Shown here piece after piece: positions 210-36,504 of a DNA stretch of 64,000 bases. The translations under genes and the position numbers were made by a program. The stretch comes from Bacteroidota bacterium (GTDB lineage Bacteria; Bacteroidota; Bacteroidia; UBA8524). The stretch spans positions 37,820-101,819 of the forward strand of contig WBUH01000010.1 of assembly GCA_008933805.1 (NCBI GenBank), in the 5' to 3' direction. Under the pieces are notes generated by a model, which was not told the origin of the DNA, did no database searches, and was given only the letters and a program-made list of their open reading frames with translations. Position 1 is the first letter of the stretch. Each line of letters opens with the position of its first letter.

Positions 210-241
210 CACAAAAGAAAACCTATTAAAAATGCATTATG

Positions 242-1192
242 CTATTCTAAGAAACGGGGAGTAAGAATTATCTTATTCAAAACAGGTTTGGGTTTACGAG
301 TGGTTTTCAACACAAAATTCAATACCAACTCGTGTGTACCGCTACTCACATTGCTAATATCAGTAAGCGTATAATCATAGCTATATCCCAAATGCCATTG
401 CGGGGTGATGTAATACCCTAACAATACCGACATAGCGTCGCCTGAGCGGTAAGCAAAACCGCCACGTAATTTTTGCTTGTACAACAAGTCAGCATTCACA
501 TCAAACTGGGTGGTTGCACCATCGTTTTTCATCAACACATTAGGGCGTAATGCTAATACAGGTGAAAGCTCAAATTGCATGCCTGCTGTTAAGTAATAGT
601 GCCTGCGGCCGTTGTATTTAACCATTGCTCCGGCAGCGGCATCGTAGTTAAAATCTTCCTCTGAAAGGTGGGTGGCCGAAAGCCCTACGTACAAATTGTT
701 TACGCTTTCGTTTTGATAGAAAAATCCAAACCCGTAATCAGGTTTCAAACTCGATACGTTTGTAGTAGGGATTTTAAGGTCGTTGGCTTGCTCAGGGCTA
801 AGTTTGCTGCCGTTTAACGATTTCTGCAAAAACCCGATAGAAGGCCCTACGCCCAAAGTTCCACTACCGATATTGAAACGGTAGTTATAAGACAATGAAA
901 GGTTTACCGATTTTTCATAGCCCAATTTATCGTTTACCAATTGCAAGCCAAAACCGTGGCTACGGAAGGGAAGATTAATACCTAATGACTGGGTACTGGG
1001 AGCCAACCCCTCTTTGTAGCCAGCCCATTGGCTGTGGTGCAGCAAAGTAGCCTCTAAACCACCTTGTGAGCCTGAATAAGCAGGGTTGTATGCCTGCCTG
1101 TTAAACATAAAATGAGTATAGTAAGGGTCTTGCTGGCCAAAAACGGCTGCACAAATAAGCAACAAGCCCAACACTGCTATTATCTTTTTCAT
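242..1192 (-). CDS. PorP/SprF-family type IX secretion system outer-membrane protein
   Basis: 316 aa. Signal peptide MKKIIAVLGLLLICAAVFGQ is followed by QDPYYTHFMFNRQAYNPAYSG, the N-terminal signature of the PorP/SprF family. The rest has a beta-barrel-like alternating pattern. It sits directly after a type-B-CTD cargo gene and an OmpA-family gene, the usual context for this family. Confidence 0.85.
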   Translation of the reverse strand: MKKIIAVLGLLLICAAVFGQQDPYYTHFMFNRQAYNPAYSGSQGGLEATLLHHSQWAGYKEGLAPSTQSLGINLPFRSHGFGLQLVNDKLGYEKSVNLSLSYNYRFNIGSGTLGVGPSIGFLQKSLNGSKLSPEQANDLKIPTTNVSSLKPDYGFGFFYQNESVNNLYVGLSATHLSEEDFNYDAAAGAMVKYNGRRHYYLTAGMQFELSPVLALRPNVLMKNDGATTQFDVNADLLYKQKLRGGFAYRSGDAMSVLLGYYITPQWHLGYSYDYTLTDISNVSSGTHELVLNFVLKTTRKPKPVLNKIILTPRFLE

Positions 1193-1219
1193 TGTTTTAA
1201 TTTTTTCTTCTTTTACAAC

Positions 1220-3163
1220 TTACTTTGATACAATCCTGAAGGTTGTACGACGGTTTAACTGATGTTCCTCTTCGCTGCAATTGCGTTTCACTTCCGTGCC
1301 CTCGCAAGCACAATCGTTTACCAGTTTGGTTTCACCATAGCCTTTTGCTTCCAAACGGGCAGAAGCAATGCCTTTGCTTATCAGGTAATCTACCACTGAT
1401 TGTGCCCTGCGTTGAGACAATTGCTCGTTATATTCTTTTGAAGAGCGGCAATCGGTGTGTGAACCTATTTCGATACGGATTTTAGGATATTTGTTCAAAA
1501 GGGTGATTAATGAATCTATCACGGGTAGTGATTCTGGACGCAAATCAGCCTTGTCTAAATCGTAGTAAATACCTTTCAGGGTAAACTCGTCTTCAACGTT
1601 CATTTGATTCAAAAGCAGCTCTTGCACAAAGTTTTCGGACAGTTCTTTACCAACGGTAGATACCTGTTTGGCCTCACTGTCAAAGTAGTAATCTTCGGCT
1701 TTTGAAGCGAAGAAACCGTATGAGGTGTTCATCATCAAAGGAGACTCAAGCACACCTTCACCGTTTGCAGTAAACGATGCGGCACTGTCTTTATTAATTG
1801 TAAACTTAACAGTAGCATTAGGAATGGTTTTGCCTGTTTTGGCATCTCTCACCACAATTTTCAGCTTAAACTCAAGCGGTTTAAGGTAAAAACCGTAAAT
1901 ATCATCCTTGCCCCTGCCGCCTTCGCGGTTTGATGACAAGTATCCGTTTTGCTTATCATCAGAAACAGTGAACGAAAAATCATCTGCACCTGAGTTAATA
2001 GGCCACTTCATGTTCACGGGTTCTTCCCACGTGCCGCCGTTATTTTTGGCTGAGAAAACATCTAAACCGCCCATACCTACGTGACCGTTTGACGAGAAGT
2101 ACAAAGTACCGTCGGCATGGATAAAGGGAAACATATCGTCTTTGTTGGTATTAATCACTGAACCTGCATTTACAGGAGCACTCCAGCTTTTACCACGCTT
2201 ATCAAAAGTAGTAGCGTAAATATCCTTACCACCAAAACCACCGGGCAAATCGGCAGAGAAATACAAGGTTAAACCGTCTTGAGACACCGAAGGATGGCCG
2301 TAGTTAGTTAACGAATCATCGCAAAACGAAAGAGCCGAAACATCTTTAAACGCTTTGCCCGAAAGTGTAGCCTCGTATATTTTACAAGAATTTTCTGTAC
2401 CCTCTACCCCGTTGCAAAGGGTAAAGTATATTTTAGAACCTGAGAACGCGCCTGTGGCTTCGTTGTAATCAAACACCAACCCTTCGGCGGGGTTTACTTT
2501 ACCTATCGAGGGCAGTTGTTCCCCACGTTTAGCCCTTTTAAGTTCGGCACGGTAAATATCAACAAACTTATCTCCGGTACGGCCGTACACTCTTCTATTA
2601 TCAGGGTTTTCACGGTCCGAAGAGAAAAACAAAGCATCGCCCCTATAGGCCACCACACCAAAATCAGAATTTTTAGTGTTTAAGCCCTTCATGTTTTCAA
2701 CTACGTAGCGGGTTTGCTCCTTTTTCCATTCCATGCCTTTTACACAGCCCTCAATCTCGTGGTCGGCTTGGTCGCCAATACCTCCTTTTGCTTTGTACTC
2801 CTCAAATTTGGCTTTGGCTTCTTCGTAACGCTCGGCATTCTTCATTTCCATCGCCACAAACCAAAGCGCCTCTTTATTATCGGGGTCGTTTTTCAAGGTT
2901 TGGTTATACCAATATTCGGCATTTTTGTAGTCGTTTATCTTACGAAAACTCTCGGCAGCACCAAAAGCAGCTTCGGCTTTCAGCTCTTTATCTGTCAAAC
3001 CAGCATACGCCTGCTTATACATGGATGAGCTAAGAAAGTACTCGCGGCTTTCAAAGGCTTTGTTAGCATCAGTAATGGTGGCTTTTCTGCTACAGCCGGC
3101 CATAACAGCCGCGCTCAGCGCAAAAACCAATAAAGGTTTTGTAATTAGTCTTATATTTTTCAT
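1220..3163 (-). CDS. PorE-like OmpA-family lipoprotein (TPR + TolB-type beta-propeller + carboxypeptidase-regulatory-like + OmpA_C)
   Basis: 647 aa with lipobox LSAAVMAGC and TPR-like helices at about aa 30-130. PD40-type blades: LFFSSDR, IYFTL, LYFSADLPGGFGGKDIY, LYFSSNGHVGMGGLDVF, GYLSSNREGGRGKDDIY. CRD-like KIVVRDAKTGKTIPNATVKF. C-terminal OmpA motif GSHTDCRSSKEYNEQLSQRRAQSVVDYL...GYGE. Confidence 0.8.
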   Translation of the reverse strand: MKNIRLITKPLLVFALSAAVMAGCSRKATITDANKAFESREYFLSSSMYKQAYAGLTDKELKAEAAFGAAESFRKINDYKNAEYWYNQTLKNDPDNKEALWFVAMEMKNAERYEEAKAKFEEYKAKGGIGDQADHEIEGCVKGMEWKKEQTRYVVENMKGLNTKNSDFGVVAYRGDALFFSSDRENPDNRRVYGRTGDKFVDIYRAELKRAKRGEQLPSIGKVNPAEGLVFDYNEATGAFSGSKIYFTLCNGVEGTENSCKIYEATLSGKAFKDVSALSFCDDSLTNYGHPSVSQDGLTLYFSADLPGGFGGKDIYATTFDKRGKSWSAPVNAGSVINTNKDDMFPFIHADGTLYFSSNGHVGMGGLDVFSAKNNGGTWEEPVNMKWPINSGADDFSFTVSDDKQNGYLSSNREGGRGKDDIYGFYLKPLEFKLKIVVRDAKTGKTIPNATVKFTINKDSAASFTANGEGVLESPLMMNTSYGFFASKAEDYYFDSEAKQVSTVGKELSENFVQELLLNQMNVEDEFTLKGIYYDLDKADLRPESLPVIDSLITLLNKYPKIRIEIGSHTDCRSSKEYNEQLSQRRAQSVVDYLISKGIASARLEAKGYGETKLVNDCACEGTEVKRNCSEEEHQLNRRTTFRIVSK

Positions 3164-3171
3164 AACCGTTT

Positions 3172-6100
3172 TTATCTAATCAGTGTAATGTTGCCTCTGG
3201 CAGTAACAATCTGGCCTGATGGCTTGTGGGCAAAAAACATATATACATACACGCCGTCAGGCAAGGGTTTGCCTTTGAAACTACCGTCCCATAAGGTGTT
3301 TTGGTCTTTGGCTTCAAACACCAACTCGCCCCAGCGGTCGTAAATCATAAAGTGTACTTCAGCCAGCTCATAAGGAGCAAAGTATTTGTACCAATCGTTC
3401 AAGAAATCACCACTTGGAGTAAATGCCGTGGGGAAATAGATGAAATCGGGCACTACAATTACTGTGCGGGCAGTGCTGTCTAGACAACCGGTAGCTGATT
3501 GTGCTGTGAGGCGTAGTTGGTACTCTCCCTCGTTACGGTATGTAATTTTGGGTAACGAATCGGTATAAGTGCGTCCGTCGGTGTTCCAAGAATATTTTAC
3601 AGCACCGAAACTATTATTGGTAATGCCGATAAGTTCACCTGCATAAAAAGTATCTTTTTGCAGCGTAAAATCAGCATCAAACACTGAGTTATCTACCTCA
3701 ACATCAATAGTATCTTCCCCACCCGGGCAACCCAACAAAGTAGATTTCACCCAAAACGATTCGTTTTTAGTCATTACCACATTAATGCTTGCGGTAGTTG
3801 CACCTGTGTTCCATAAAAAAGCATCTCCGCCGTTAGCGGTTAACGTAGTTTGCGAACCGAAACAAACCTTTGCAGGGCCTGCAATCTGTGGGTCGGGCGC
3901 AATTACTGATTCTACTTGCACACTATCGTAAAAAGTGCAGCCGTTTGCATCTGTACCGTACACCTTAAAGTATGCTGTAGCAGGCGGATAAGCGAGTGTT
4001 GAAGCCGACGAGGTATCGCTTAAAAAGGGCGAATATTCCCAAGTGTAGTTAATAGCTCCCGTGGCGGTTAGTGCAGTAGTATCTCCCTCGCAAATGGTTT
4101 TCTTCACTCCCGCATCAACAGAAGGCAAAGGCAGTATCGTAACCGTAACATTTTTAGTTACATCTGGGCATCCTGCACCTGCTTTTGCCACTACACTATA
4201 CATAGTAGTGTTGATGGGCTGTGCAGTGGGTGATGCCAAGGTATCGTTATTAAGGCTGCCGGATGGCGACCATTTGTAGCTTTCACCACCGCTTACATTT
4301 AACTGCGTGCTGTTACCAAAACAAATGGATGTATCAGGGCTGATGGTAATAACAGGCTGTGCTTTCACCGCCACCACTACACTACTGTCTGTTTGGCAAC
4401 CCAAAGTATCGTTTACAACCAGTTTTACATTGAATTTACCCGTATCAACAAATTGACGTTGGAAGTTACCACCCGAACCTTTAAGAGTATCGTTTATATG
4501 CCAGTTGCGTTGGGTAATAGCCCCTGCGGGCGAGCTGTTATCAGTAAAGGTTACCGTTCCGCCGGCACAAATTGTAAGGTTACTGGTGGTAAAGACTACT
4601 GCGGCACCGTTGATAATAGTAATGGAATCATCGGTAAAATAGGTAAGCGAGCAATTATTGCTATCGGTCAATATCAGCTTGGGTCTGAAAATACCGTTCA
4701 CTTTATACACGTGCGTGGCAGTGTCTGTATTCAGGTAATCCAATTGTCCGTCGCCGTAATCCCAAGTGTATAGTACCGCATCGGTGCTACCGTTGGCTTT
4801 CAAATTAACCTTCAAAGGCTTGCAACCATCATTTGGTGTAAAACTAAATGTCCCGGTAGGTCCGCCTACAGTAATAAAATCTTGTTTAATAATGCTGTCG
4901 TAGCAACCGCCTATACTCTTCACCCGCACCGATACAGTGTATTTACCGGGCTTGTTATAGGTATGTGTCGGATTTTTTACTGCTGAGTAACTACTATCGC
5001 CAAAATCCCAATAGTATTCATTTACATCGTCGGTTTGGCTGATGGTAAACACCACGGCAAACGGAGGACAAAGTCCCTTGCTTTGATTTACGGAGAAATC
5101 AACCTGTGGTTTTACCACATTGATTGCTTTTTTAACTGTGATAGAATCCTCACAGCCGTCGTTCCTCCTCACTCGCAAAAACACATCGTATTTACCAGTA
5201 TCGTTGTACACGTGCGAAGGATTGATAACATTAGAGGTATCTCCGTCGCCAAAACGCCAGTGATAACGGTTGTTCAACCCGCCAACGGTATAGTTTTGAA
5301 AACTTGCCGTAGTGCCCGCACACAACACATCGGGAACTACCATAAATACCGGTTTAGGAGGGGCGTACTCAATAACACGGGTAAGGCTGTGCGAACAACC
5401 TATTTTGTCTGACACGGTAAGAGTTACTAAGTAAGTACCCAATGCTGAAAATTTGTATTTTGGGTGACGAAGATTGCTGGTATCAGCGGGAGCTTTGCCT
5501 TTATCACCAAATTTCCACGTCCACTTTGAAAGACTATCGGTTTTGGTGGAAATATCAAAAAACGCCACCGAATCGGGAGGACATATCCTACCTACGGTTT
5601 TAAAATTAGCCCGAGGCCCTTTCACGTATATTTTCCGCGTTGCCGAAGCTGTACAACCGTCTTTATCGGTAGCGGTCAGTTTAGCATCGTACACCGCCGG
5701 AATGGTGTATTTATAAGAAGGTTTTTGAATGATGGCCGTGTCGCCGTCAAGGGCAGGGTCGCCAAAATCCCAAAACCATTTGCGGCTGCGGGTGGTGGTA
5801 TCGTCAAAGTTTACGGTAAGAGGGGCACATCCTGTAGTATCAGAGAGTTTAAAGTTTGCTCTGAATTTTGGCCGCACCCGCACATCGTAAATCATTGAGT
5901 CTCTGCAACCCGTACGTACACTAAACAACCACAACTTCACAGGGTAATCACCGATTGCCGTGTAGGTATGTGTAGGTAATGAATCTACCGAGTAGTTACA
6001 ATTTTTACCCACGTTCAACCCGTTTTTGGTATCGGTGGTACACTGCTGGTTACTGATTTTAAAAGCTTTGGGGTCGTTAAAAAACCACACCCTAACCACG

Positions 6101-8031: not shown

Positions 8032-8063
8032 TACGCGCTCAAAATCTCCCTCACTGTTGTTTT

Positions 8064-11000
8064 TTATTGTTTATCAATTTTCACCGTTTGGTTATAGCCA
8101 TTGGTGCTAATGTTTACAAAGTAGATTCCGGCAGCCCAACCGCTCACATTTACAGCAGTTTCGCGGGCGTTTGTTTCACCTTTCCAAACCAATCTTCCTG
8201 TTGCATCGGTTACACTGATTACCGCTTGCTCTTCAGCAGGCAAGCTGATATTCAGTTCTCCTTGGCTAATAGGGTTAGGATACACTACTATCTGCGCACC
8301 GTTTACACTTTCGATACCTAAACCGGGGCCAACGGCTACGGTTTTTTGTACCTCAGTAGAGCAGGCCACGGCAGTATTACCGTTCCATACCTTCATGGTG
8401 ATGGTTTTGGTACCTTGGCTTGCCCATTTAACATTGTGAGGACCAACACCTGATGCAGTTTGAGGTGTTGCATCGGTTCCAAAATCCCAGGTGTAATACT
8501 GAGCGGTTGTAGCGGTTTGTATCACAGTGGGCTGATTGGTCGCAACATACGATGCCGCTGTAAACGCAGCATTAACAGGAATTGTATAAACTGTTACCAC
8601 CGCTGAAGCCTTAGGACTGTAGCACTTACCGTCGAACACGTTTGCATAGTAAGTACGGCTGGTGTTAAGTGCGGGTGTAGTGAATACTACACCGCTATCG
8701 GCTGATATGGTGGCAGTATTATCGTTGAACCAATATACTTTACCACTGCCGGTAGCATTTACCTGTGCCGAAGAACCTTCGCAAACGGCAGGTTGGGTAA
8801 GCGTTGGGGCAGCAGGCAAGGCAAGCACATCAACGGTAACGGGTACACGCTGGCTTTTGCAAGCTCCTTCAAAAGCTTCTAAGAAGTATGTAGTGGTAGC
8901 AAACAGGTTGGCGGTATTAAATCGCTCACCGGTAAAGAAAGGTATCGTTGTAGTACCGTCGATAAACCAACGGATGTCTTCGTTAGCTGTAGCTTTTACA
9001 ACCGCAGGAGTGCCTGCACATACCTCAGCACCTACGCTGAAAGGATTTTGTATTTGTGCTCTTACAGCCACATCAACACGGGTGCGGGTACTTGGGCAAC
9101 CGATTACTACTTTTTCTACATAGAAAGAAGTGTCTTTAGTAAGCGAGCTGCTTGTTAATACATCGCCGGTGAATAGTGCGGTGGTTGCATTTACATCGTT
9201 ATACCAATTGTGTGTTCCGTTAGTATCGGCTGCTAATTGCACCGATTGGTTGTAGCACAATTGGGTAGTACCGCTTACAAAAGGAGCAACCGGTATTGCA
9301 TTTATTTTAACCGGATAAGCCACGCGGTTGCTTATACAACCGATGTTTTTCACCTCAGCATAAAACACAGTATCAATAAAAATTACACCCGCATTAACGG
9401 TATTGCCAATGGCAAAAGGCTTTTCATCGTTCATAGCTGCAAACCATCGGATAGAACCGTTTCCGGTGGCAGTAAGGTTTGCGGTATTGCCATTACATAC
9501 GTTTAACGTAGTAAATGCAGGAGCAGCAGGAATGGTACAAGCAGAATCCACACCAATGGTAAATACGATATAGTTATTCAACACGTCGGATTGAACACCG
9601 TTGGTATTTGCAGTCCTGCGCACAGGGCCTTCACTTACCCAACGGGTGCCGTTCCAGCTTACTACACGAATGTTCAACGCATCAACACCTGTAATGGCCG
9701 AGTTTGTTGTGAAAGGCACTTCAACACGACCTTCAACTGTATTTGAAGTGCTTATTTTCCAGTATTCGTTGGCTTTCACCGCAGCTAGGCCTTCGCCACG
9801 CTTAGCCGTATCAAAACCGTTGTTGTTTGGTGTATTGCCTACATACTCCAGCGTTACCCAAGTATTTGCATTATCAGCAGTATAATTTACAGGAGCATAA
9901 ATTGCTTTACCTACGGGCAATTGCACTGTTTCAGCGCTATCCACCCAAACTTTCACAGGGCCGTTAATGTAGCTTGCGGCTGAATAACCATCAATCACAC
10001 CATTGCCGTTAATAGTAAGTAAGTTGCTTGGGCTTGTGGTAATATTACCTGCCCCAATAAATAATGTATCGGCAATAGTTAGGTTATCGGTCAACACCAA
10101 GCCACTGTTGTTGCTCACTTTTACTGTGCGGGCAACGTTGCCGTTAAGGCTACCGCTGTTTTGCACAGCAGTACCATTAAATACATAATTGGCAGGCTGA
10201 ATGGTTTTAGCACCTGTATTGGCAAACAAACCACTTACACCTTGCGAGTGTGCAGTGATAATTGTTGCGTTACTTTCAATAATAGTAGCGGCATTGCCTG
10301 TGAAACCGTTAGCGAAACCGTTTAATTGGCCGGCCACACGAATACCATTATTAGCAGTAGTTGTGATGGCTTTGTTATTTAACAATTCGGTTTGACTTGA
10401 AGCAGCTATTTGGAATATAGCTGCGGCACTGTTCACCTGTATCGAACCTGTACCGCTCAGTTGAGCCACATCCGTAATACGAGTTTTAGCAGAATTAACT
10501 ATAACAAGGTCTCCTGCGCCGGTAATACCGTTACGCAAACCTCTCTCGCCGTTACCACCAATGGTTAATGTTGTATTGTTATCTATTGCAAGCAAGCCGT
10601 TTATTACCAACGGGCTGTTTGCATTCATGGCTGAACCGGGGAATGTGTTGTTTTGTGCTATCCTAAAAATGGCTACTTCGTTAGCAGCCGAATTAGGGAA
10701 CATCACAGCAGGACTGATGGTGTTTGCAATAGTGGTATTGTGTACATATAATGCGCTGTCTTCAAACCTGATATTGGTGTTTCCTGCCCAATCGGCAGCA
10801 TCACCAAATGAGGCAAGCTCAATTACACCGCCCTTTTTCACTGCAATGCTTGCAGGCGCAGCAATATCTATACCGCCAATTGATTGGCCGTTGTTGTGCA
10901 ACAAGGTTCCTTCAACAGTTATATCATCACCAAAAGCATCATTAACAGCAAGTTTGAACGGCGCTACCGATGGGGTTACCAATACAGCACCCTTTTCAAT

Positions 11001-14036: not shown

Positions 14037-14056
14037 TTTTAATCCGTTGTTACTAC

Positions 14057-20140: not shown

Positions 20141-20162
20141 TTCTTAAAAACTTTCAACCGGA

Positions 20163-23100: not shown

Positions 23101-26100
23101 CCCAATACAATTGTATTGTTATGTACTTTACCGGCAACGGCTGCAGTTGAATAGTAGCGAATACCTTGCAACGACACGGGCATGTTTGCAAATGCCTCGT
23201 TGGCAAACAAAATTTGGTTTTTGTAAACATTCCAAGTACCCGCGTTAACGTGAATACCCATTAAGGTTCCTGCACTTGCCGAGGTAGTTTGGTGGCTTAC
23301 TTTGTATAGTTTGTTGTTGCGTATATCACCGTTACCGCCGTTAGTACCTATACAGGTAATAAATCCGGTAGCGGTTGAGCTGTTATTCAACAACGAGTAC
23401 ATCTCGTTGTTTTCAATAATGTTATTACTAAAGTTGTTAGCCAAATAAACACCCATAAATGCAGCATCTTGCGCACCGGTAATACGGCTACTAAAGCCTT
23501 GTATATCGTGCAACACGTTACGGGCTATATACGCAGGGGCGGCTGCCTGATAATCAATTACCCTAAAGGCTTTTGCAGTGCTGACAACCCCCGAATGACG
23601 GATGTATGAAAACTCGTTATCAGTAATTTCTGCACTCGCAGTAACACTTGAAGGAAGGTAAAGAATTGACAACGCATTGCCGTTGTTTAGAACAAGTGCA
23701 TCGTTGTAGTTAGATAAGTTACCACCTATTTTATTACCTGAGAAGATGAACTTACCAGCGTTAAGGCTTATCACCCTAACAATGAATGAAGATGTTTGTG
23801 ATTGTGTATATAACCTGATTACGTTACCCTTAATAATTGTGGGGGTATTGTTGCCAACGGTTATGTTCATCAGCGAAAGTGCAGCAGTACCTCCGTATGA
23901 CCACATAGCACCGCTTGCAAATTTTTGTGTACCGCCAATGTAATTGTATGAAATTTCATACCCGTGCGCAGTAGCGTTAGCTACCACATCAATTGCACGT
24001 ACCGCACTGGTTAGAGCGCGTGTATCGTTTTGAAAGAAGTGGTTGCCCGATATTTTCCAGTTTGGCCCTGAATACGTTGAAGCTGCAATATGCGCAACGG
24101 TGAAGTTTGAAAATTCGTTGTTTAGTATCTGAATATTGTCGTTAGTAGCAGTAGCGGAAAGACCCACTGAAACTATACCGTACGAGGAAACTCTGTCGGC
24201 TCCGATGACAAACGAGTTGTTTTTTATAATAGTACCATCATTACCCTCACCACCGGTAAAGGTGTTGCTAATAAAGATACCGCCTTGGGTACCTGAGGCA
24301 TTGGCTACTATAGTAAGGTTGTTAAAAATGTTGTTGTGCGCATCTTGCTGCAACATAAACACCGAAGCATTGGCGGCATTGGTTTCTGTTCTGAAAGTCC
24401 ACTCGCGGGTATTGGTCGGGTTGCCTAAAATATCATATCCGGCGCCGTCAAACTCAATACTATCTGCACCATACATGGCAATCATACCGTACGAAGCATT
24501 TGTAGTTTTTGTTTTGCTACCGGTAACAATCCCAAAAGCGTTAGAGTCCAAGCGGATTAATACTTTACCGCCATTGCCTGCATAACGCATTTGGCTGAAA
24601 AAGACAGGATATTCTTCGTTTACGTCGTCGTAAGTTGAGGTAATAAGAAACTTAGGGTTACCGGCTATGTAGCTTGAAGCCAGTTTTTTTGAAACAGCAG
24701 TAAGGTTTTCAAAATCATATCCCCTACCTACCCTATATATATTGTTGTAAATAGTATCGCCTGAATAATCTGCCGGAGCAATAAACAACACGGTATTAGC
24801 CGAAGTATCAAAGCCCATTTTTGAGGCCGCAAGCACCACGCTAACAGGACTAACTCTTGTTCCTGCCGAATCAAAAGCAGGCGCGGCGGCTAGTGAGTTG
24901 GTTTTACCACTTGCCACACGAACAAAGCCGTCAGTAATTTTGTAGTTTACATTAACGCCAAACGAGCTGATGCCTTTAGCGTTGCTGTCAGCAACCACTA
25001 CCCAATGTCCAAAAGCAGTATCAACAGTAGTTATCCCTTTTCCTATGCTAAAAGCCAAAGGCTCTTTGCGGAAACTGGCTGTTATCTCTGAAAAACTGCT
25101 ATCGGTAACCAGTGTATTTAATGAAAGCGGGCTATACGCTTGGTTTCCAACAGGGAATGTATAAGCACCGGCAGTTAGTTTTTTATCCAAACGCCTTGCT
25201 ACAGCACCGCGTATATACGTTGTAGCACTACCACCCACAATTGCAGCGGCGGCAGGATTGGCTATGCGTATTTTATTAGGAGCATCAACTACAAACACAC
25301 CTTTGGTAAGTGTTAGTACTTGCGCAACGTTTATTGAGCCGTTGGTGATTGCAACGGCCGAATCAGAGTTGATAGTAAGGTTAGTAATGTTCCTGTCGGC
25401 AGGAATTTCGAAACCTGTTTTATACGCTTTACCAAGGTTGATATAGCTAATGTTATAGGCAGCATTACCCCTCCACAATTCAGGAAAAGTATCTAATGTT
25501 CCGCCATAAAAATAGCTACCGCTAACCCTGCTTATTTCAATATTTATTGCGTTAAGACTATCGCCCAAACGCAGGTTTTTGGCATTGATAACGTTACCCG
25601 TTGTAAGATTCAGCAGAATTGTGCGAATCATATTAGGAGCAGGAATAACAAGGGTTGATGCAGTATCTGTCTGCAAAACATCAAGCCTTGCCAAATTAGA
25701 GTATCCTGTACCGGTAAGTGTTTGGTTTTTACCATTAAACACCATCGCGCCTGATACGTTACCCGAATAGATGTAACCGTTGTTAATAACCGAATCGGCT
25801 AAGTATAAGTAAGCATTAAGGTTAAAAGTATCATTTGCCGTATGGATAAAATCACCCATAACGTTGGCAAACGCAGTTAACCTTACTTTTACTGTTTTGG
25901 TTGAAGTAGCAGAGCTGTCGGTTAATAGATTAGGGAATACACCGCGTACTAAAAACTCAGGATTTGCAGCAGTTGCTGTAGTGGTGGAATCGGTTAGTTT
26001 TACCCATGTACCTGTGTATTCAGAAGCACCTGTACCTTGTACGTAATAGTCTAAACGGCTCGTTACAATACCGGGGTTTACCAAAACAATTTCACCGCCC

Positions 26101-28136
26101 AGCATTTTAATAACAGCCGTTGTTAAACCCATTGTAGGCTCGTTAGTATTGTTACCAACTACGGCTAAGCGCAGCTTACCCCCCGTTTGAATAAACGATG
26201 TAGCACTGGGGCTGTACAACCTTCCGGCAAGGTTCATTGAACCGCCTTCAATAATCAAATCAAAAGAACCGCTGAAATAGTTGTTGTTAGTAGTCCCGAA
26301 GGATAAAGAGCCCTTTTGCACTTTAAAAGTGCCGTTAAAAGCAATGTTGCTGTTTTGCCCAACAACCGTAAGACTGTCGTTTGCAAAAACAACCCCTGCA
26401 TTATCACCAATTACAGGGTTAAATGCTGTAAACAAACGGTTTTCAAGTTTATAGTTACCGCCTATTACAAGCGTACCTACCCAATTGTTAGTTTCCACAA
26501 AACCTCCGTTTGATAGCAAGTCAGTATTGTATCCGCGAACAGTGGCTGTAGCAGGTGAAAAATATACCGAGTCAGCAATGTTTGTTCTTTCAACCGAAAG
26601 TGAACTGATGTTTGTTGTTGCAGTGGCGTTGGTAATAAATGAAGAAACTTTGCGACCAAAAAAAGTAAGGATCACCCCCTCTTCTTTGGTACCGTTCTTC
26701 TTATAAAGGTCTATAACACCATTATTATAAATATCACCGCGAACGGCCAATACCATTGATGTATTAGTATTGGTAGGTACCGAATGAACGGAAATTTTAC
26801 CGTCTTCGCTCACCCAAATATTGCCGTGTACGTTTAGTTTGCGGGTGGCACTTGTGTTTTCATATACCAGCGCACCGCTATCAATTACTAAATGATACGC
26901 ATTGGCTGCTGCATCGTCAAGTATTACCTCGTAGCCTTTGCTTACTACAACGCTATCGTAGCGGCTGGGAACCGAATTGGTTGACCAAGTTGCAGGGTTT
27001 GACCATGCACCGCCGGCTACGGCCTCTATTAATTGCGCAGGAGGTATTGATACCGTGCAGATGTTGCTATATGCCGAATATTGACCTTGATTATAAGTCC
27101 TTACCCTGAAAACGTGTTCTTCGCCGGGATAGAAACCTTCGGCCAAATAAAAGTTGATGTTCTGGGTAGTACTGTCAAAGTAGTTAAAGTTACCGTACTT
27201 GTCTTTCTTCTCAATTTCAAACCTCACCTCGTTGTTACTGTTATCGTCCCAATACAAAACAGCTTGGTCGTAAGTAACATTTATTGATGTCATGTTTGAT
27301 GGACCGTAAATCACATCAGGCGTAAAAACAAACCTGCGAGCATTGCTGTCGTTATCATACGTAAGCGGAGCAATAACACCTGAATCGGCTTTGTTGTACA
27401 AGTTATCTAACGAAGTTGTATAGGCAGTAAGGGTACGGGCAGTATCAAAACTGTCCAAATCAGTTACTACTAAAAAGTTGTAATCTGCTAATGCGCTGTT
27501 GCGGGCAATACCAATAGTAGCAGTAACCGGAGTTGCGGTATTGGTAGATGGGATAACCATCTTACCATATACATACTCAATCACACCGCCGTTTTCGTAA
27601 ATGCGTACTTGGTAATTGCTTTCGCTACCTGCAACGGGTGTTGCTGCTGAGGGTATGTATGTAACCCACTCCACTACTAAAGCACGGTTGGGCGCTGTAC
27701 CCGTAACCGTATATTTAAGTGAAGCAGCGGTTTGAATGTCCCAAAAAGGGGCTATCACGCCTTGAAAACGATAGTTATTGTTGCCCAACTTAAAGGAGTT
27801 TCCGTTGGTTGCAGGAAACAACAACTGTTCAGCGGTATTATCATTATTACCTAATACCAAATACCCTGATGTACCTATTAAGAAGTGCTTATACACCTTG
27901 CCCAAAAGCACCACATTAAAAGGCAGGTTATATACCTGTGTGTTTTGGTTAGCAGTATTGGCAGTAATCAAAGAGGTTACTGTAGAGAAGTCAATGGCAT
28001 TACCATTGGCATCTTTTCGCAAATCCCCTTTTTTGTCGGTTGCAAAATCATACGCTCTTGAATCCTGCGCAGTTGCAGCCACCGTCACAAAAACGGTCAT
28101 TGCCAGCAGGCAGAGCAATTTGTTTATCGTTTTCAT
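20163..28136 (-). CDS. Giant (2657 aa) beta-helix/Ig-repeat surface protein with T9SS type A C-terminal sorting domain
   Basis: Signal peptide MKTINKLLCLLAMTVFVTVAATAQ. FN3-like unit (VLYWDDNSNNEVRFEIEKKD...HVFRVRTYN). GGAWSNPATWS-led beta-helix-like region. PbH1-like I.NN repeats. Eight Ig-like repeats and a PKD-like domain. C-terminus SVYPNPASSVLNIIA...GVYLLQIRLNNSQTVMQKVIID is a type A CTD. Confidence 0.85.
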   Translation of the reverse strand: MKTINKLLCLLAMTVFVTVAATAQDSRAYDFATDKKGDLRKDANGNAIDFSTVTSLITANTANQNTQVYNLPFNVVLLGKVYKHFLIGTSGYLVLGNNDNTAEQLLFPATNGNSFKLGNNNYRFQGVIAPFWDIQTAASLKYTVTGTAPNRALVVEWVTYIPSAATPVAGSESNYQVRIYENGGVIEYVYGKMVIPSTNTATPVTATIGIARNSALADYNFLVVTDLDSFDTARTLTAYTTSLDNLYNKADSGVIAPLTYDNDSNARRFVFTPDVIYGPSNMTSINVTYDQAVLYWDDNSNNEVRFEIEKKDKYGNFNYFDSTTQNINFYLAEGFYPGEEHVFRVRTYNQGQYSAYSNICTVSIPPAQLIEAVAGGAWSNPATWSTNSVPSRYDSVVVSKGYEVILDDAAANAYHLVIDSGALVYENTSATRKLNVHGNIWVSEDGKISVHSVPTNTNTSMVLAVRGDIYNNGVIDLYKKNGTKEEGVILTFFGRKVSSFITNATATTNISSLSVERTNIADSVYFSPATATVRGYNTDLLSNGGFVETNNWVGTLVIGGNYKLENRLFTAFNPVIGDNAGVVFANDSLTVVGQNSNIAFNGTFKVQKGSLSFGTTNNNYFSGSFDLIIEGGSMNLAGRLYSPSATSFIQTGGKLRLAVVGNNTNEPTMGLTTAVIKMLGGEIVLVNPGIVTSRLDYYVQGTGASEYTGTWVKLTDSTTTATAANPEFLVRGVFPNLLTDSSATSTKTVKVRLTAFANVMGDFIHTANDTFNLNAYLYLADSVINNGYIYSGNVSGAMVFNGKNQTLTGTGYSNLARLDVLQTDTASTLVIPAPNMIRTILLNLTTGNVINAKNLRLGDSLNAINIEISRVSGSYFYGGTLDTFPELWRGNAAYNISYINLGKAYKTGFEIPADRNITNLTINSDSAVAITNGSINVAQVLTLTKGVFVVDAPNKIRIANPAAAAIVGGSATTYIRGAVARRLDKKLTAGAYTFPVGNQAYSPLSLNTLVTDSSFSEITASFRKEPLAFSIGKGITTVDTAFGHWVVVADSNAKGISSFGVNVNYKITDGFVRVASGKTNSLAAAPAFDSAGTRVSPVSVVLAASKMGFDTSANTVLFIAPADYSGDTIYNNIYRVGRGYDFENLTAVSKKLASSYIAGNPKFLITSTYDDVNEEYPVFFSQMRYAGNGGKVLIRLDSNAFGIVTGSKTKTTNASYGMIAMYGADSIEFDGAGYDILGNPTNTREWTFRTETNAANASVFMLQQDAHNNIFNNLTIVANASGTQGGIFISNTFTGGEGNDGTIIKNNSFVIGADRVSSYGIVSVGLSATATNDNIQILNNEFSNFTVAHIAASTYSGPNWKISGNHFFQNDTRALTSAVRAIDVVANATAHGYEISYNYIGGTQKFASGAMWSYGGTAALSLMNITVGNNTPTIIKGNVIRLYTQSQTSSFIVRVISLNAGKFIFSGNKIGGNLSNYNDALVLNNGNALSILYLPSSVTASAEITDNEFSYIRHSGVVSTAKAFRVIDYQAAAPAYIARNVLHDIQGFSSRITGAQDAAFMGVYLANNFSNNIIENNEMYSLLNNSSTATGFITCIGTNGGNGDIRNNKLYKVSHQTTSASAGTLMGIHVNAGTWNVYKNQILFANEAFANMPVSLQGIRYYSTAAVAGKVHNNTIVLGGQTRSTNSYGLVHGSTSARVEMYNNIVINKNNMTGGATFRAVGIHAAPSSVFSSDFNVVYTPIESNAFYNVSNATAYTPQSWNALTGLEKNTIFNTIPVFRDTLVANLLLTLDTINWKLNAAGRATTFGKDYEGETRHNNQPDIGADEFGAPMFATPVFVGGNDTLCAGNTRTLIAQNPNAGGKIYWFNKPYGGDTIHIGDTLVTDTITVNSAFYAQVSDSLVRSYRVEVPVNVIPVATPWIANLPVDSVCNGTSWTLIADSTSGAVISWYDSLNAVTPFHIGRSYTTPVLTSDTIYYISTVSNGCVSAKVPFEVLVSDTIVGVPAISSQTVCEGSNVTWTTNGPDIIRWYNSETETLPMVEDTIFDAGNLYNDTTYWYEVFNGRCLGNRNTVSVTVNPIPAAPFIDSQFVVCYNGSINLAPVVSGTATWYADAVSTTPLNTGALIFNTLVADTTLFVDNSQAGCTSARVKTTIKVQTPASVNFVSAASPICFNTNSQIVLSKNGNGTIKWFDQYNATTTIATGDTLNTATLAADKTYYYELFDGLCTTVRDSVQIAVIPFAIKPVITPVDSVCYGLSDTLVAAAAGAVINWYENKTSAPVYSGNDFVLPAVTGNKKYFAKAVYAGCESDFETVNVNVRALPQPPLVDSVQPVCRGNAAILKAVTPATAEWFNSLFATTPSSIGNTYTTANLNVNTTFYVQSYDGYCRSEKRPVAVTLRNAPAAPVIKTVNPFCWGDNVTIEAGSNSIVRWYKDAADTVPFVADSTLFVGKLFKDTTYYIESYDGFCTSSKVTYNVGVIRYMDGFSVSIPDSANIKTQVTLSATGNFDNLYGWNFGSGASLSSATGTGPHNLEWSTKGLKNVRLTITKKVGAVTCDTVITKTVKVYNLSELLSTQTVDNASLLSVYPNPASSVLNIIATEGTTIAHITLADVTGKTVYTETVDASYKTVDVKGFAKGVYLLQIRLNNSQTVMQKVIID
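20691..22637 (-). repeat. Eight tandem 78-87-aa Cys-bracketed Ig-like repeats (coding)
   Basis: Units start CAGNTRTLIA, CNGTSWTLIA, CEGSNVTWTT, CYNGSINLAP, CFNTNSQIVL, CYGLSDTLVA, CRGNAAILKA, CWGDNVTIEA. The upper boundary was checked against DNA: ATPVFV is encoded at 22621-22637 on the minus strand. Confidence 0.8.
22986..24338 (-). repeat. Parallel beta-helix (PbH1-like) repeat region inside the 2657-aa protein
   Basis: About 20-25-aa periodic motifs: NNIFNNLTIV, IIKNNSFVIG, IQILNNEFSNF, KISGNHFFQ, EISYNYIGG, IIKGNVIRL, IFSGNKIGG, EITDNEFSYI, YIARNVLHDI, NIIENNEMYS, DIRNNKLYKV, NVYKNQILF, KVHNNTIVLG, EMYNNIVINK. The start was checked against DNA: the His codon of HNNIFNN lies at 24336-24338. 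Confidence 0.6.
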
Positions 28137-28173
28137 TTATTCCGTTTATTCTTCCTTGTGTAATTCCTATTGC

Positions 28174-31100
28174 TTATCGTACCAGTGTTACCGTACCTTC
28201 CAGTTTAAACTGCTTAAGGTTTTCAGCCACCAGCAAGTAGAAGTATGTACCAGCAGGAGCAGGGTTTCCGTTAAAATCACCGTTCCAACGGTCTTCAGGT
28301 CGGCTGCCTTCAAACATCAGTTTGCCCCAACGGTCAAAAATCTTAAAGCTGTATTGGGTAAATGTTCCCTTAGTAATGGCTCCGAAATTGTCGTTAACAC
28401 CGTCCCCTTCGGGTGAGAATACATTAGGGATGGTTATCCCTTCGTACACGGTTACTATTTTTTCGATAGTGTCCACACAGCCTTTATCGTTCACCACAAT
28501 AAGGGTAACTTTAAACTGGCCTGGGGTTTCAAATGTGTGTTTAAGGGGATTATCAACAGATTCTTTGCCCTCAACAATCCATTTAAACGAGCTGATGTTT
28601 AGTGTTTTGTTGGTGGCGATAATATCCAAGGGCACAAAACCTTGCTGGGGAGTGAAGTCAAAATCAGCATTGGGGTTATTGTTCACCAATATTTGCACGG
28701 TATCAGCGTAGTTGGCGCAATCGGTTACTTTAAACCAATACGAGGCATTTGTTGAAGGTTGTACAGTGATTGTCGGCGTAGTTTCGTTGGTACTCCACAT
28801 ACCGGGTAGCGAACCGCTTACATTAAGGGTAACTTTTTCGCCCCTGCATATATTAATAACCGGACCGGGGAAAATTGTATCTCCGGGATTGGTAATAACA
28901 TCCACCAGTTGGTCTATCTCATTGTAGCATCCGTTAGCATCCGTATAGCTGTACTTAACAGAGTGCGAACCTGCTCCCAATGTTTTGGGATTGAATGAGT
29001 TGGTATTGGTTCCGTTTACCGTAAACTGCCCGCCCATTGGCGTACCTGATAGCTGAATTAAATCATCTGAGCTACAGTACTGAGTGTTAAGACCGTTAAT
29101 GGCTACGGGAGGAGGTGTACCCACAAATACGGAGTCTTTTACTTTGTTTACGCAACCGTACACAAAATCAACAAAAGTGTATTCAATTACGTGATGCTTT
29201 CCGGCTGTATAAATGGATGGGTCGAATGTATTACCTGATACGGGCAAACCATCAATGGTTATTGCACCGCCGGTAGGGTTGGTTGTAATAGAAATAGGAT
29301 TGCTGTTGAAGCACAGGTTTTTAGTAAGACCAACAATTTGAGGGTTTGGCAAACCCACCACAACAAAGTCTTGAGTGTCTTTTGTACTGCAATTGTTTGC
29401 ATTAGTATAGGTGTATATCACCCTGTGGTTACCCAAACCTGCTGTAGCAGGGGTAAACTGTGTAGCTGCTGTATTATCTAATGTAAAGTTACCACCCGCA
29501 GGAGCTCCTGTAAGCGTTACTTGCGCGGCATCAATACAGTAGTTTGCATTTAGCCCTGTGATATTGGCCGTTGGCTTATCAATAGTGAAAGTACCTACTG
29601 CTGAATCAATACAGCTGTACGTAGGATCTTGGTAGGTATATACCAACCTGTGCGCACCCGTTGCAATTGTTTTGGGGTTTATACTAAATACAGGGTTACC
29701 GTCAAGAGTAAATATACCGCCTGTAGGGTTTGCAGTAAGGCTTACGGTAGCAGCATCGTAGCAATACACCGCGCTTAGCCCTGTAATATTAGGGTTGTTT
29801 TTTATTACATCAACCGTAGCTGTATCGGCATTAGCACATGCACCGTCACTATAATAATATACAACGGTATCTATACCTGCACGGGCAGCCAAAGCAGCAG
29901 GGTCATATTTAGTATCGGCAACACCGTTTACGTAGAAAATACCGCCTGTAGGTGTTCCGGTTAATACTACTTCAGGCTCGCCTGCGCAATAAAAACTGTT
30001 CATCCCGCCAAGGGTAACCACCAAGGTATTGTTTACATCACTCTTTTTGGTATCGCTTGCAGGACAACCGATTGAATCTGTATAAGCATAGATAACGGTA
30101 TGAGTGCCTAATCCCAAAGTACCGGGATTAAAAACCGAGTCTGGCACACCGTTAATGGTAAATATACCTCCGGCGGGAGTTCCTTTTAGTTTAAAGGATG
30201 GTGCCGCGGGGCAATACTGTCCGCCTAAATTATCAATAGCGGCAGTAGGCATATATATAGTAAAATCAACTGTATCAGTTGCCGTGCAACCGCCTACGGT
30301 TGTATCGGTATATTTATATACTACGTAGTGACTACCTAATGAGAAGGTGGAAGGGTCAATGGTATTTTGCTGAGTACCGTCAACATAAAAAGTACCACCT
30401 GTGGGCGTACCCGTAAGAGTTACCACTGAGCCCGATTGACAAATTTTATTAGAAAGACCTGTAATGGTGGTAGGAGGTGCAGGCAAAATGGTTATTTGCT
30501 TAAACACTGTATCAACCTTACCGCAAAGGCCGTCAACCATAAAGGTTACTTTATAAGTACCCGCGCTCCTAAAAGCATGGGCAGCCACCATTGTTTTTAA
30601 AATAGGTGAACCGTCACCAAAATCCCAACGCGGGTTTTTGTAGCAGCTTGATAATGAAGTATTGAAAAACGCTGGAGCGTTTTGGCAAATAGTATCAGGG
30701 GCAGTAACGCTTAAAGGATTAAGAGCAGGAGCTTCACCTATAACTAATGAATCCAGTGCAAAACCTTCAGCTGTACATTGCGAACCTGTTGAGGTAAATG
30801 CCCAACGGAACATTACGCTTGGCTGACCTGCCAGCATATTAAGACAGCGTTTTGCCTCAGCCCATCCACCGCAATATCCTCTGCCGCCGCAACCGCTTCC
30901 CCAGCTACCACATGGGTAACTGCGTGCGTTACCGCTCCAACCGCCAAGGTTATACCAGTTTTTAGTTTCGCAGTTATCAGCATCAGCATTAGAACCTAAG
31001 TTGTTCCAAGTACCTCCACCGTTTGTAGAGTATTGCATGGTAACTACCTCCCAGCTATATTCTACCTCAACTACAAACTGAAAGGCTATGTAGGGTGTTT

Positions 31101-31722
31101 TAAGATTAGTGAAATCGTAGCAAGGCGATGTTAAATAAGAAACGTCGCTATTGGCGTATAGTCCGGTAAGACCACCGTTTGTCCAGCTATTAACACCGTG
31201 GGCTGATTGGCCTGTGTTGGGTTTATTCCTTGCACCCCAAATCCAAGTTGAGTTAGTTCCACCGGCAGTAAAACCGCCGTTGTTGCTTTCAAAACTTTCA
31301 AAGTAAGGAAACGATGATACTTTAGGTACATAAACAAATACCGAAGTATCATTTGCCCTTGTTGGGTCGCCCGGCAAACTGGTATATACCTTTAAGGTAT
31401 TTACTCCACCTGTTAAGGTGTTTAGTTTGGTTGCAAAGGTGTAGTTTATAGAACCCGCAGTTGCAATACTAGCTCCTGTGTAGGTTTCGGTAACTACAGA
31501 ACCTCCGTTAAGGCTATACGAAATATCAAAGTTGGTAATAGCTGCACCTGAGATGTTTGCCACCCTAACAACCACACTATCGGTGCGGGGTGCATTGGTA
31601 CAGTTTAGGGCTGTAGTAGGATATATTACATTAGTAACAGCCAGGTTATTCTGGCCGTTTACCAGAATAGCCGAGAACAATATCAGAACAACAAACAACG
31701 ATTTGTAAAAACCTTTATACAT
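28174..31722 (-). CDS. CARDB/MAM-like/PKD/Ig-repeat surface protein with T9SS type B C-terminal sorting domain
   Basis: I prefer the internal ATG at 31722 (1182 aa) because it gives the signal peptide MYKGFYKSLFVVLILFSAILVNGQ. CARDB-like unit (VVVRVANISGAAITNFDISYSLNGG). MAM/choice-of-anchor-like unit (FPYFESFESNNGGFTAGG). Two PKD units and seven ~75-aa GTP.GG.F repeats. C-terminus IPNVFSPEGDGVNDNF...IFDRWGKLMFE...WNGDFNGNPAPAGTYFY...GTVTLVR is a type B CTD. Confidence 0.85.
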   Translation of the reverse strand: MYKGFYKSLFVVLILFSAILVNGQNNLAVTNVIYPTTALNCTNAPRTDSVVVRVANISGAAITNFDISYSLNGGSVVTETYTGASIATAGSINYTFATKLNTLTGGVNTLKVYTSLPGDPTRANDTSVFVYVPKVSSFPYFESFESNNGGFTAGGTNSTWIWGARNKPNTGQSAHGVNSWTNGGLTGLYANSDVSYLTSPCYDFTNLKTPYIAFQFVVEVEYSWEVVTMQYSTNGGGTWNNLGSNADADNCETKNWYNLGGWSGNARSYPCGSWGSGCGGRGYCGGWAEAKRCLNMLAGQPSVMFRWAFTSTGSQCTAEGFALDSLVIGEAPALNPLSVTAPDTICQNAPAFFNTSLSSCYKNPRWDFGDGSPILKTMVAAHAFRSAGTYKVTFMVDGLCGKVDTVFKQITILPAPPTTITGLSNKICQSGSVVTLTGTPTGGTFYVDGTQQNTIDPSTFSLGSHYVVYKYTDTTVGGCTATDTVDFTIYMPTAAIDNLGGQYCPAAPSFKLKGTPAGGIFTINGVPDSVFNPGTLGLGTHTVIYAYTDSIGCPASDTKKSDVNNTLVVTLGGMNSFYCAGEPEVVLTGTPTGGIFYVNGVADTKYDPAALAARAGIDTVVYYYSDGACANADTATVDVIKNNPNITGLSAVYCYDAATVSLTANPTGGIFTLDGNPVFSINPKTIATGAHRLVYTYQDPTYSCIDSAVGTFTIDKPTANITGLNANYCIDAAQVTLTGAPAGGNFTLDNTAATQFTPATAGLGNHRVIYTYTNANNCSTKDTQDFVVVGLPNPQIVGLTKNLCFNSNPISITTNPTGGAITIDGLPVSGNTFDPSIYTAGKHHVIEYTFVDFVYGCVNKVKDSVFVGTPPPVAINGLNTQYCSSDDLIQLSGTPMGGQFTVNGTNTNSFNPKTLGAGSHSVKYSYTDANGCYNEIDQLVDVITNPGDTIFPGPVINICRGEKVTLNVSGSLPGMWSTNETTPTITVQPSTNASYWFKVTDCANYADTVQILVNNNPNADFDFTPQQGFVPLDIIATNKTLNISSFKWIVEGKESVDNPLKHTFETPGQFKVTLIVVNDKGCVDTIEKIVTVYEGITIPNVFSPEGDGVNDNFGAITKGTFTQYSFKIFDRWGKLMFEGSRPEDRWNGDFNGNPAPAGTYFYLLVAENLKQFKLEGTVTLVR
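28894..30477 (-). repeat. Seven tandem ~75-aa repeats (G-L-x(3)-Y-C ... L-x-G-x-P-x-GG-x-F ... G-x-H-x-V-x-Y-x-Y-T-D)
   Basis: Units begin GLSNKIC, NLGGQYC, LGGMNSFYC, GLSAVYC, GLNANYC, GLTKNLC, GLNTQYC. Each contains (T/K)G(T/A)P.GG.F, F.P...(G/A).G.H and a second Cys. The upper boundary was checked on DNA: the first Pro of PPTTITG lies at 30475-30477. Confidence 0.75.
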
Positions 31723-31744
31723 GATTTCAAAAAAATTTGCCCGA

Positions 31745-31752
31745 CAAAAGTA
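31745..31752 (-). promoter_or_regulatory. Candidate Bacteroidota sigma-A -7 box (TAnnTTTG) for the cargo block
   Basis: The minus strand reads TACTTTTG, with 22 nt between the motif and the ATG at 31722. It is the only such box I see in the 374-nt upstream spacer close to the start. Confidence 0.4.
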
Positions 31753-32018
31753 TAGAGGTCGTATAGCGTAAAAGTTATGCAATGGTTACGGTGTAAGAAC
31801 ACCACCTCTTTTTTAGAAAGCACCCCAAAACCAAAACCGAATACAGACTATTTTTGGTAGTATAAAATCTATATATCAACACATTAAAAAAAAAATAATT
31901 TAGATTTTAAAACTAGAAAACGGATAGCACAGTGGATTATTTTTAGGCTTTAACACCCGCATTAAATACAGTAAAGGTTCTCTTAATATTAGCCATGAAA
32001 GAAACGGCCTAAAATGAG

Positions 32019-32053: not shown

Positions 32054-32096
32054 AAAGTGAGTTAGTAGTAAATACAGGTATTATATCCGCAGTTAC

Positions 32097-36503: not shown

Positions 36504-36504
36504 T

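Follow-up and report, generated by a model that had tools for sequence, protein, structure and literature searches.

The window examined here is a 64,000-nucleotide (64-kb) stretch of contig WBUH01000010.1 from a member of the Bacteroidota, in which seven consecutive minus-strand open reading frames (ORFs) appear to constitute a cargo-plus-anchor locus of the T9SS (type IX secretion system). Five of them specify giant proteins predicted to reach the cell surface, two with type B and three with type A C-terminal domains (CTDs), and these are followed by genes for a PorE-like lipoprotein and a PorP-like outer-membrane barrel. The host organism is known from metagenome-assembled genomes (MAGs) only. 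In the direction of transcription the block is ordered B1, A1, A2, A3, B2, PorE-like, PorP-like, and its features, with lengths in amino acids (aa) and distances in nucleotides (nt), are:

31745 to 31752, minus strand: promoter box TACTTTTG, a putative Bacteroidota-type -7 element (TAnnTTTG) located by motif scan, 23 nt 5' of the ATG of B1
28174 to 31722, minus strand: B1, type B cargo of 1182 aa, with a signal peptide, a CARDB/MAM-like N-terminal region, PKD, about eight Cys-containing Ig-like repeats, PKD and a CHU_C CTD
20163 to 28136, minus strand: A1, type A cargo of 2657 aa, with an N-terminal domain, fn3, G8, an extended stretch of beta-helix-like sequence bearing NN-type repeats, eight Ig_7 domains and a Por_Secre_tail
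14057 to 20140, minus strand: A2, type A cargo of 2027 aa, with a variable tip of about 170 aa, fn3-like and beta-sandwich modules, a G8-like beta-helix, four Ig_7 domains and a Por_Secre_tail
8064 to 14036, minus strand: A3, type A cargo of 1990 aa, a paralogue of A2 with an unrelated N-terminal tip
3172 to 8031, minus strand: B2, type B cargo of 1619 aa, rod-like, made up of 14 or more PKD domains and lacking a distinct tip, with a CHU_C CTD, adjoining the anchor pair
1220 to 3163, minus strand: PorE-like lipoprotein of 647 aa, with tetratricopeptide repeats (TPR), a PD40 beta-propeller, an OmpA_C peptidoglycan-binding domain and the lipobox VMAG/C
242 to 1192, minus strand: PorP/SprF-family outer-membrane beta-barrel of 316 aa, presumed to shuttle and anchor type B cargo
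177 to 210, minus strand (scan site 210 to 187): predicted intrinsic terminator ending the block, with a 10-bp stem containing six GC pairs and a T-run, directly 3' of the last stop codon

In the ORF list of the window the block occupies positions 242–31722 (31.5 kb). Its spacers, from the PorP-like end to the B1 end, measure 27, 8, 32, 20, 22 and 37 nt, and the five cargo proteins sum to 9475 aa; the ORF count, spacer lengths and cargo total given in an earlier reading of the letters alone (the sequence-only reading) were all reproduced. The mechanical ORF of B1 (28174–31782) opens at a TTG, and the ATG at 31722 yields the 1182-aa protein with a clean signal peptide. A scan of the minus strand for TAnnTTTG found no copy within 100 nt upstream of any other block start, the closest lying 478 nt upstream of A2, which agrees with the claim that the box before B1 is the sole start-proximal one. 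The same motif stands at the aligned position 5' of the B1 orthologues in the related loci L093 and L088, so that the box is kept in three lineages including that of the window. At the other end of the block, the single clean terminator proposed earlier coincides with the strongest terminator-like site that the scan found on the minus strand (210 to 187). Its stem is kept, with changes confined to the loop, in L001, a locus from a different assembly that is about 97% identical to the window at the DNA level. The tight packing of the genes, with one box and one terminator, makes it most likely that in the window's lineage the block is read as one long transcript from the B1 promoter. This single-operon layout fits the motif scans, and short spacers are also kept in orthologous loci.

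Across the whole window TAnnTTTG is markedly scarce: counted over both strands it occurs 47 times, where dinucleotide shuffles give an expectation of 87 +/- 7.6, a depletion that is consistent with selection against spurious promoters.

The sequence-only reading had assigned a signal peptide and a T9SS CTD to every cargo protein, in the class order B-A-A-A-B, and Pfam and NCBIfam matches above the curated cut-offs bear out the CTDs and their order. The CTD of B1 scored 59.7 bits with TIGR04131 and 64.9 bits with PF13585, and that of B2 scored 53.4 and 50.7 bits (cut-offs 35 and 27, respectively). The type A CTDs of A1, A2 and A3 gave 41.6, 44.9 and 49.8 bits with TIGR04183 (cut-off 23) and 49–51 bits with PF18962 (cut-off 27). 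The Sec signal peptides of B1 and B2, MYKGFYKSLFVVLILFSAILVNG/Q and MKIGILRYIVLISGLLTLAATKLQG/Q with the slash at the predicted cleavage site, were read from the translations with no predictor. Read in the same way, a glutamine directly follows the predicted cleavage site in all five cargo proteins and in the PorP-like protein. In all five cargo proteins the Bacteroidota sequon for O-glycosylation, D(S/T)(A/I/L/V/M/T), is two to four times as frequent as their composition would predict (119 sites, 41 expected), and these proteins are probably O-glycosylated. The enrichment was absent from the PorP-like protein and from the cytoplasmic window proteins that were checked; three other envelope-type proteins showed a milder one (1.7–3.6 fold).

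The adhesin-like plan of a tip, a beta-rich stalk and a CTD holds for the cargo set. B1 has full-length orthologues of 1162–1196 aa at 39–95% identity. Its head is inferred to be CARDB/MAM-like because it gave a sub-threshold match to Reelin_subrepeat-B and because partial homologues of the B1 N-terminus bear CARDB, MAM and InhA-like-MAM Pfam domains; a PDB sequence search with B1 gave no match. The MAM, CARDB or choice-of-anchor labels given earlier to the tips are thus supported, though only indirectly, for B1. The tips of A2 and A3 are covered by no Pfam or NCBIfam profile match. B2 matched GhpA, the grappling-hook protein of Aureispira (PDB 9flp; see below), with E = 3.8e-46 in the PDB sequence search, its CTD aligning to GhpA residues 5813–5882.

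A2 and A3 are 54% identical over 1848 aa, and their first 150–170 residues or so are unrelated. Collinear relatives of these two proteins, of about 2000 aa, make up about nine clusters only at 50% identity, and modules from within them are met with in over 1100 large proteins. The G8 domain of A1 scored above the Pfam cut-off, and the Ig repeats of A1 matched the GhpA stem with E = 1.3e-64. GhpA was the sole PDB sequence match for A1, A2 and B2, and residues 1–1900 of A1 had no PDB sequence match at E <= 1. An AlphaFold2 (AF2) model of A2 residues 1–1200 was all-beta, with a predicted local distance difference test score (pLDDT) of 68.5 and a confidently modelled beta-helix from about residue 970. 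A Foldseek search with this model returned generic fn3, Ig and MG sandwich chains only, at a template-modelling (TM) score of about 0.1, and an enzyme fold for the region was ruled out by these sandwich-only matches. Enzyme domains were sought in all five cargo proteins by Pfam, NCBIfam and PDB sequence searches and none was detected, in keeping with the earlier statement that no catalytic motif was recognised. When the halves of A1–A3 and B1 that lacked annotation were scanned against Pfam at a relaxed threshold (E <= 1), fn3, G8 and weak Reelin-B matches alone came up, and none allowed an enzyme to be assigned.

The two genes that close the block were identified by profile searches. In the PorE-like protein the TPR match is weak, PD40 repeats are present and the OmpA domain was found with E = 5.2e-18 and the motif TD...LSQRRA. 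The sole trace of a CRD domain was a faint match in the PorE-like orthologue of L086. The protein scored 432.4 bits on NF052230 (T9SS_PorE) and 434.1 bits on CHU_0125. Since these values lie below the NCBIfam cut-offs of 600 and 620, it is classified, on its sequence, as a PorE-like paralogue and not as the core PorE. The PorP-like protein scored 239.5 bits with TIGR03519 (cut-off 90.55), covering positions 1–290 of 292, and matched PF11751 with E = 1.9e-64 over positions 2–273 of 273. It is the single PorP of the window, and an exact-sequence look-up with it gave no match. B2 lies beside the pair, with the PorE-like gene and not PorP as its immediate neighbour, and B1 lies 26 kb upstream of PorP.

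A survey by means of the PorE-like protein yielded 78 loci, of which about 55 carry a type B CTD gene followed by PorP and then PorE. The order PorE then PorP was found only in the window's lineage (L001, L002) and in L051. In several of the loci (L014, L015, L063) a single PorP is preceded by two type B genes, and cassette loci without type A genes are the norm. The sequence-only reading had spoken of a private PorE-like/PorP-like pair; both identities are confirmed by the profiles, but with about 55 of 78 loci carrying it the cassette is widespread.

The sequence-only reading had proposed a comparative-genomics check of the gene order, and when this was run the block was found in related loci at 40–70% identity. 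Rearrangement notwithstanding, about eight lineages keep the extended block, with identities as low as about 40%. The principal loci, with protein lengths in aa in brackets and identities to the window counterparts, are:

L081/L082: A2 at 70% identity; B-A(2657)-A(2037)-A(1991)-B(1621)
L079: A2 at 62% identity; B-A(2669)-A(2008)-A(1995)-B(1621)
L080: A2 at 44% identity; B(1183)-A-A-B(1619)-PorE(649)-PorP(318), then another A gene after 413 nt
L084: A2 at 42% identity; B(1183)-A-A-B(1607)-PorE(649)-PorP(323), with a further gene 363 nt beyond
L086 (a JGI metagenome lineage): A-B(1630)-PorE-PorP-A(1591)-GldC-like
L088 (contig CALRNX020000003.1) and L089 (GROS21 scaffold_356): B1 at 39–42% identity, divergent from A1(2668/2695)-A2(1996/2009)
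L093: a 479-aa gene, then B1-A1-A2

Protein lengths across these loci are mostly within 2%. In L080 the B1, B2, PorE and PorP proteins are 59–63% identical to those of the window, and the A proteins 40–43%. In the A2 protein of L079 the first 200 aa or so are replaced (20–25% identity versus 59% for the whole protein). Since the block is conserved in other lineages, the comparison supports its being a functional unit and not five unrelated exoproteins.

Several of the parts have been described elsewhere. In Porphyromonas gingivalis PorP is bound by PorE and itself binds PG1035, a type B protein; in Flavobacterium johnsoniae SprF binds SprB (PMC9143113). Five or six operons of F. johnsoniae unite a type B substrate, an SprF-like shuttle and a PorE homologue (PMC9143113, PMC12618676), and one such PorE-linked substrate, Fjoh_3952, is static (PMC12618676). 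In the published model the mobile type B adhesins (SprB, Fjoh_4750) have no PorE-like partner and the PorE-linked ones are static and wall-anchored (PMC9143113, PMC12618676). The grappling hook of Aureispira sp. CCB-QB1 is a heptamer of the 5898-aa T9SS substrate GhpA, encoded beside ghpB (PorP) and ghpC (PorE) (Lien et al., bioRxiv 10.1101/2024.01.29.577165), and the GhpA stem multimerises laterally (bioRxiv 10.1101/2024.01.29.577165). The suggestion that no described system has this gene content is therefore too strong, the module of type B, PorP-like and PorE-like proteins having been published (PMC9143113, PMC12618676, bioRxiv 10.1101/2024.01.29.577165).

One close counterpart is Fjoh_3952-3951-3950 of F. 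johnsoniae, in which, as in the window, a type B adhesin-like protein and cognate PorP/SprF-like and PorE-like genes form one operon, with a static, cell-wall-anchored surface complex as the proposed outcome. The canonical order there is cargo-PorP-PorE whereas that of the window is cargo-PorE-PorP, and the window's co-directional block also includes a second, distant type B gene along with three type A giants. The likeness to the grappling hook lies in a giant Sec/T9SS substrate with Ig-like repeats, a binding module at the N-terminus and a sorting domain at the C-terminus, accompanied by PorP and PorE homologues which in Aureispira are proposed to form an outer-membrane/peptidoglycan basal body. 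The hook, however, is made of one homo-heptameric protein, and the window specifies five of 1182–2657 aa, three of them type A; the gene order also differs, being ghpB(PorP)-ghpC(PorE) in Aureispira and PorE-PorP in the window. PDB sequence searches showed no homology to the GhpA hook or neck, the matches being limited to the Ig/PKD stem repeats and the CTD, and no type VI secretion or predation context is visible in the 64-kb window. With PorE of P. gingivalis the window's PorE-like protein has in common the TPR, beta-propeller, OmpA_C domain and lipobox; the P. gingivalis PorP and PorE are, unlike the window's cargo-linked paralogues, single-copy core components of the T9SS, and PG1035, at about 50 kDa, is small beside the window's giants. 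SprB/SprF offers a giant, repetitive adhesin with a type B CTD and a PorP-family partner downstream, but SprB is mobile and has no PorE-like partner, and a Pfam search found no SprB-repeat (PF13573) in the window proteins. The known part of the locus is thus the type B/PorP-like/PorE-like cassette; the new part is its conserved extension by type A giants, together with some unusual details.

We consider it probable, though well short of assured, that this is a chromosomal T9SS cargo-plus-anchor locus that extends the type B adhesin/PorP-like/PorE-like cassette and specifies co-expressed, static, wall-anchored surface fibres. By analogy with the published systems, the PorP-like barrel would take over B2 from the SprA translocon and would keep hold of it through an uncleaved type B CTD. 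With the PorE-like lipoprotein bridging this barrel to the peptidoglycan, the fibre would be static and anchored in the wall, resembling Fjoh_3952-3951-3950 or GhpABC on a smaller scale. A1–A3 would exit via PorV, and PorU would remove their type A CTDs, leaving the proteins linked to anionic lipopolysaccharide (A-LPS) or released; porU, porV and the A-LPS genes lie outside the window. The three proteins can be seen as having a conserved body, with G8-like beta-helix and Ig_7 domains, and an N-terminal tip that has diversified, which suggests, again by analogy, ligand-binding heads on stalks. B1 would either share the window's PorP-like protein or use one encoded elsewhere. The conserved linkage and the near-invariant lengths suggest that the products work jointly, as an adhesive layer or a set of appendages expressed together at the cell surface.

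A number of observations weigh against this reading of the locus. The PorE-like protein falls under the NCBIfam cut-off for PorE, and the pair stands in the reverse of the usual gene order. The operon layout differs in L080, L084, L088 and L089, so that co-transcription is not kept everywhere. B1 and the A genes are divergent in L088 and L089, two distant lineages, and the unit is therefore not obligatorily one operon; L080 and L084 have the extra gene downstream of PorP at 413 nt (an A gene) and 363 nt, respectively. Internal promoters within 31.5 kb are possible despite the motif scans. The AF2 model of A2 is of moderate confidence (pLDDT 68.5, predicted TM score (pTM) 0.40), and the G8/beta-helix-like region of A1 could conceal a polysaccharide-active site missed by the profiles. 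Lastly, the CTDs of B1 and B2 are 34% identical over their last 100 aa. In F. johnsoniae CTDs that share a shuttle are more than 44% identical, and no crosstalk was reported for a pair at 43% (PMC12618676). By this yardstick a shared shuttle is disfavoured, and that the anchor pair is private to both type B proteins is no more than a possibility.

The low B1-B2 identity, which suggests different shuttles, also speaks for a possible if rather doubtful alternative, in which the cargo are independent adhesins that became neighbours through tandem duplication and shared regulation, each acting alone and with the PorE/PorP pair serving B2 only. A2 and A3 are indeed tandem paralogues, most cassette loci lack type A genes, and the neighbourhood is rich in other T9SS cargo, L001 having three more type A genes past the terminator. 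Such a history would not account for B1, A1 and the A2/A3-type genes (and B2-PorE-PorP where the loci reach that far) staying together at about 40% identity, which goes beyond duplication.

The same persistence of linkage, through inversions and shuffling across about eight lineages, would be expected of one heteromeric appendage, in which the type A proteins dock non-covalently on a base of B2 (and B1), PorP and PorE to form one fibre of several T9SS substrates, an organelle resembling the grappling hook. Lengths that are nearly invariant at 40–60% identity are unusual for free-standing repeat adhesins and suggest matched dimensions, and both A and B proteins have Ig/PKD repeat types in common with the laterally multimerising stem of GhpA. 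Type A and type B cargo, however, use different post-translocon routes (PorV/PorU versus PorP-like), the A genes vary by lineage in number and position (two or three, sometimes after PorP), and the A proteins evolve faster than B, PorE and PorP. On balance we think such an appendage, the one composite structure proposed in the sequence-only reading, unlikely. Much the same small weight is given to its fullest form, a hetero-oligomeric organelle in which type A giants with exchangeable tips would sit on a wall-fixed type B base, with both sorting routes used, subunit lengths held constant and expression under a 470-aa TPR-like protein encoded upstream of B1.

G8 proteins of the CEMIP/TMEM2 type and tailspike-like depolymerases provide the comparison for a reading of A1–A3 as glycan-active surface proteins, the G8/parallel-beta-helix regions of which would bind or degrade polysaccharide, and not as adhesins. 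The above-threshold G8 domain of A1, the NN-rich repeats typical of right-handed beta-helices at about residues 1150–1800 of the same protein, and the G8-like start and beta-helix of A2 and A3 (confidently modelled from residue 970 or so) speak for it. We judge it very improbable nonetheless, since no glycoside hydrolase, lyase or Beta_helix family match was seen even at E <= 1, the first 1900 residues of A1 drew no PDB match and Foldseek placed A2 1–1200 among beta-sandwich chains only. Gliding adhesins propelled over the cell surface like SprB, which the sequence-only reading had entertained, have the 'gliding motility-associated' annotation of the type B CTD, the GldC-like gene beside L086 and the absence of a PorE-like gene adjoining B1 in their favour, but are just as improbable, B2 being directly beside a PorE-like gene and PorE-linked type B cargo being static in the published model, where the mobile SprB type lacks a PorE-like partner.

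The block bears on two questions in T9SS biology, namely how type B cargo pairs with PorP-like shuttles, and what determines whether a secreted giant stays put as a fibre, moves as an adhesin or is released as a factor. It is a natural test case, having two type B CTDs of low identity, one PorP/PorE pair in reversed order, three type A giants that have remained linked through substantial divergence and two paralogues in which the tips are the main difference. Should the products form a joint assembly, this would be the first T9SS appendage to use both sorting routes; if they do not, it would be one more instance of the known wall-anchored adhesin cassette, in an uncultured lineage. The locus is of moderate interest to T9SS specialists.

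Directly upstream of B1, and outside the block, lie two further features:

32019 to 32053, minus strand: hairpin read from the sequence, with a perfect 10-bp stem, a 15-nt loop and a T-rich tail, 3' of the 470-aa gene
32097 to 33509, minus strand: gene for a predicted cytoplasmic, all-helical, TPR-like protein of 470 aa

The hairpin probably insulates the 470-aa gene from the block. The protein had no match in Pfam, NCBIfam or PDB sequence searches, and its family numbers 20 members among 5.8 billion proteins. It is 43–44% identical to the products of genes adjoining the B1 orthologues in L088 and L089, and a member of the family lies directly upstream of B1 in L093 also, as in the window. In the confident AF2 model (pLDDT 87.5, pTM 0.76) a TPR-like solenoid is joined by a small bundle of helices at the N-terminus; Foldseek gave the model only weak matches, to the TPR arrays of MalT domain III, Rap, NprR and LGN. 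As a hypothesis only, the protein may be a candidate regulator of T9SS cargo loci. Elsewhere (L090, L092) members of the family lie beside other T9SS cargo and two-component genes.

The remainder of the window consists of ordinary chromosomal genes, among them those for YifB, lipoamide dehydrogenase, PaaN, a PAS histidine kinase, a TonB receptor and an LruC-domain protein. No tRNA and no signs of mobile elements were found in the window, and with these housekeeping surroundings an origin as a genomic island is unsupported. Around positions 31500–32300 no long or perfect inverted-repeat pairs flank the promoter, only imperfect pairs of 10–17 nt being present, and a search for DNA tandem repeats in the block found none; phase variation by inversion or repeat slippage is for these reasons not indicated.

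Beyond the window's left end, the three convergent type A cargo genes that follow the block terminator in L001 (positions 13558–21685 of that record) specify proteins of 716 aa (fn3 with Exo_endo_phos), 686 aa (Lamin-tail domain, LTD) and 490 aa (no recognised domain). LTD and nuclease cargo alike are also found beside members of the 470-aa family in L090 and L092, which suggests that the adhesin block sits in an older neighbourhood of a 47x-aa gene and LTD cargo. The L001 record (CALRQL020000001.1) is labelled 'MAG: Agrobacterium sp. 719_389'; its T9SS cargo, PorP/PorE and promoter boxes are those of Bacteroidota, and the label is probably wrong. In L086 the GldC-like gene (14898–15272) comes immediately after A-B-PorE-PorP-A, with PorZ-like/Reg_prop histidine kinase genes nearby; this neighbour may be a link to gliding or to T9SS regulation, and nothing comparable occurs in the window.

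Within the window, positions 36001–40000 have a low GC content (0.35–0.37) and a strong positive AT skew (0.16–0.20), and contain several small plus-strand ORFs with no Pfam match and one outer-membrane beta-barrel protein (38967–39617). The LruC-domain protein, of 689 aa, is specified on the minus strand at 61140–63209 (TIGR04456, E = 9.7e-71) and is unrelated to the block.

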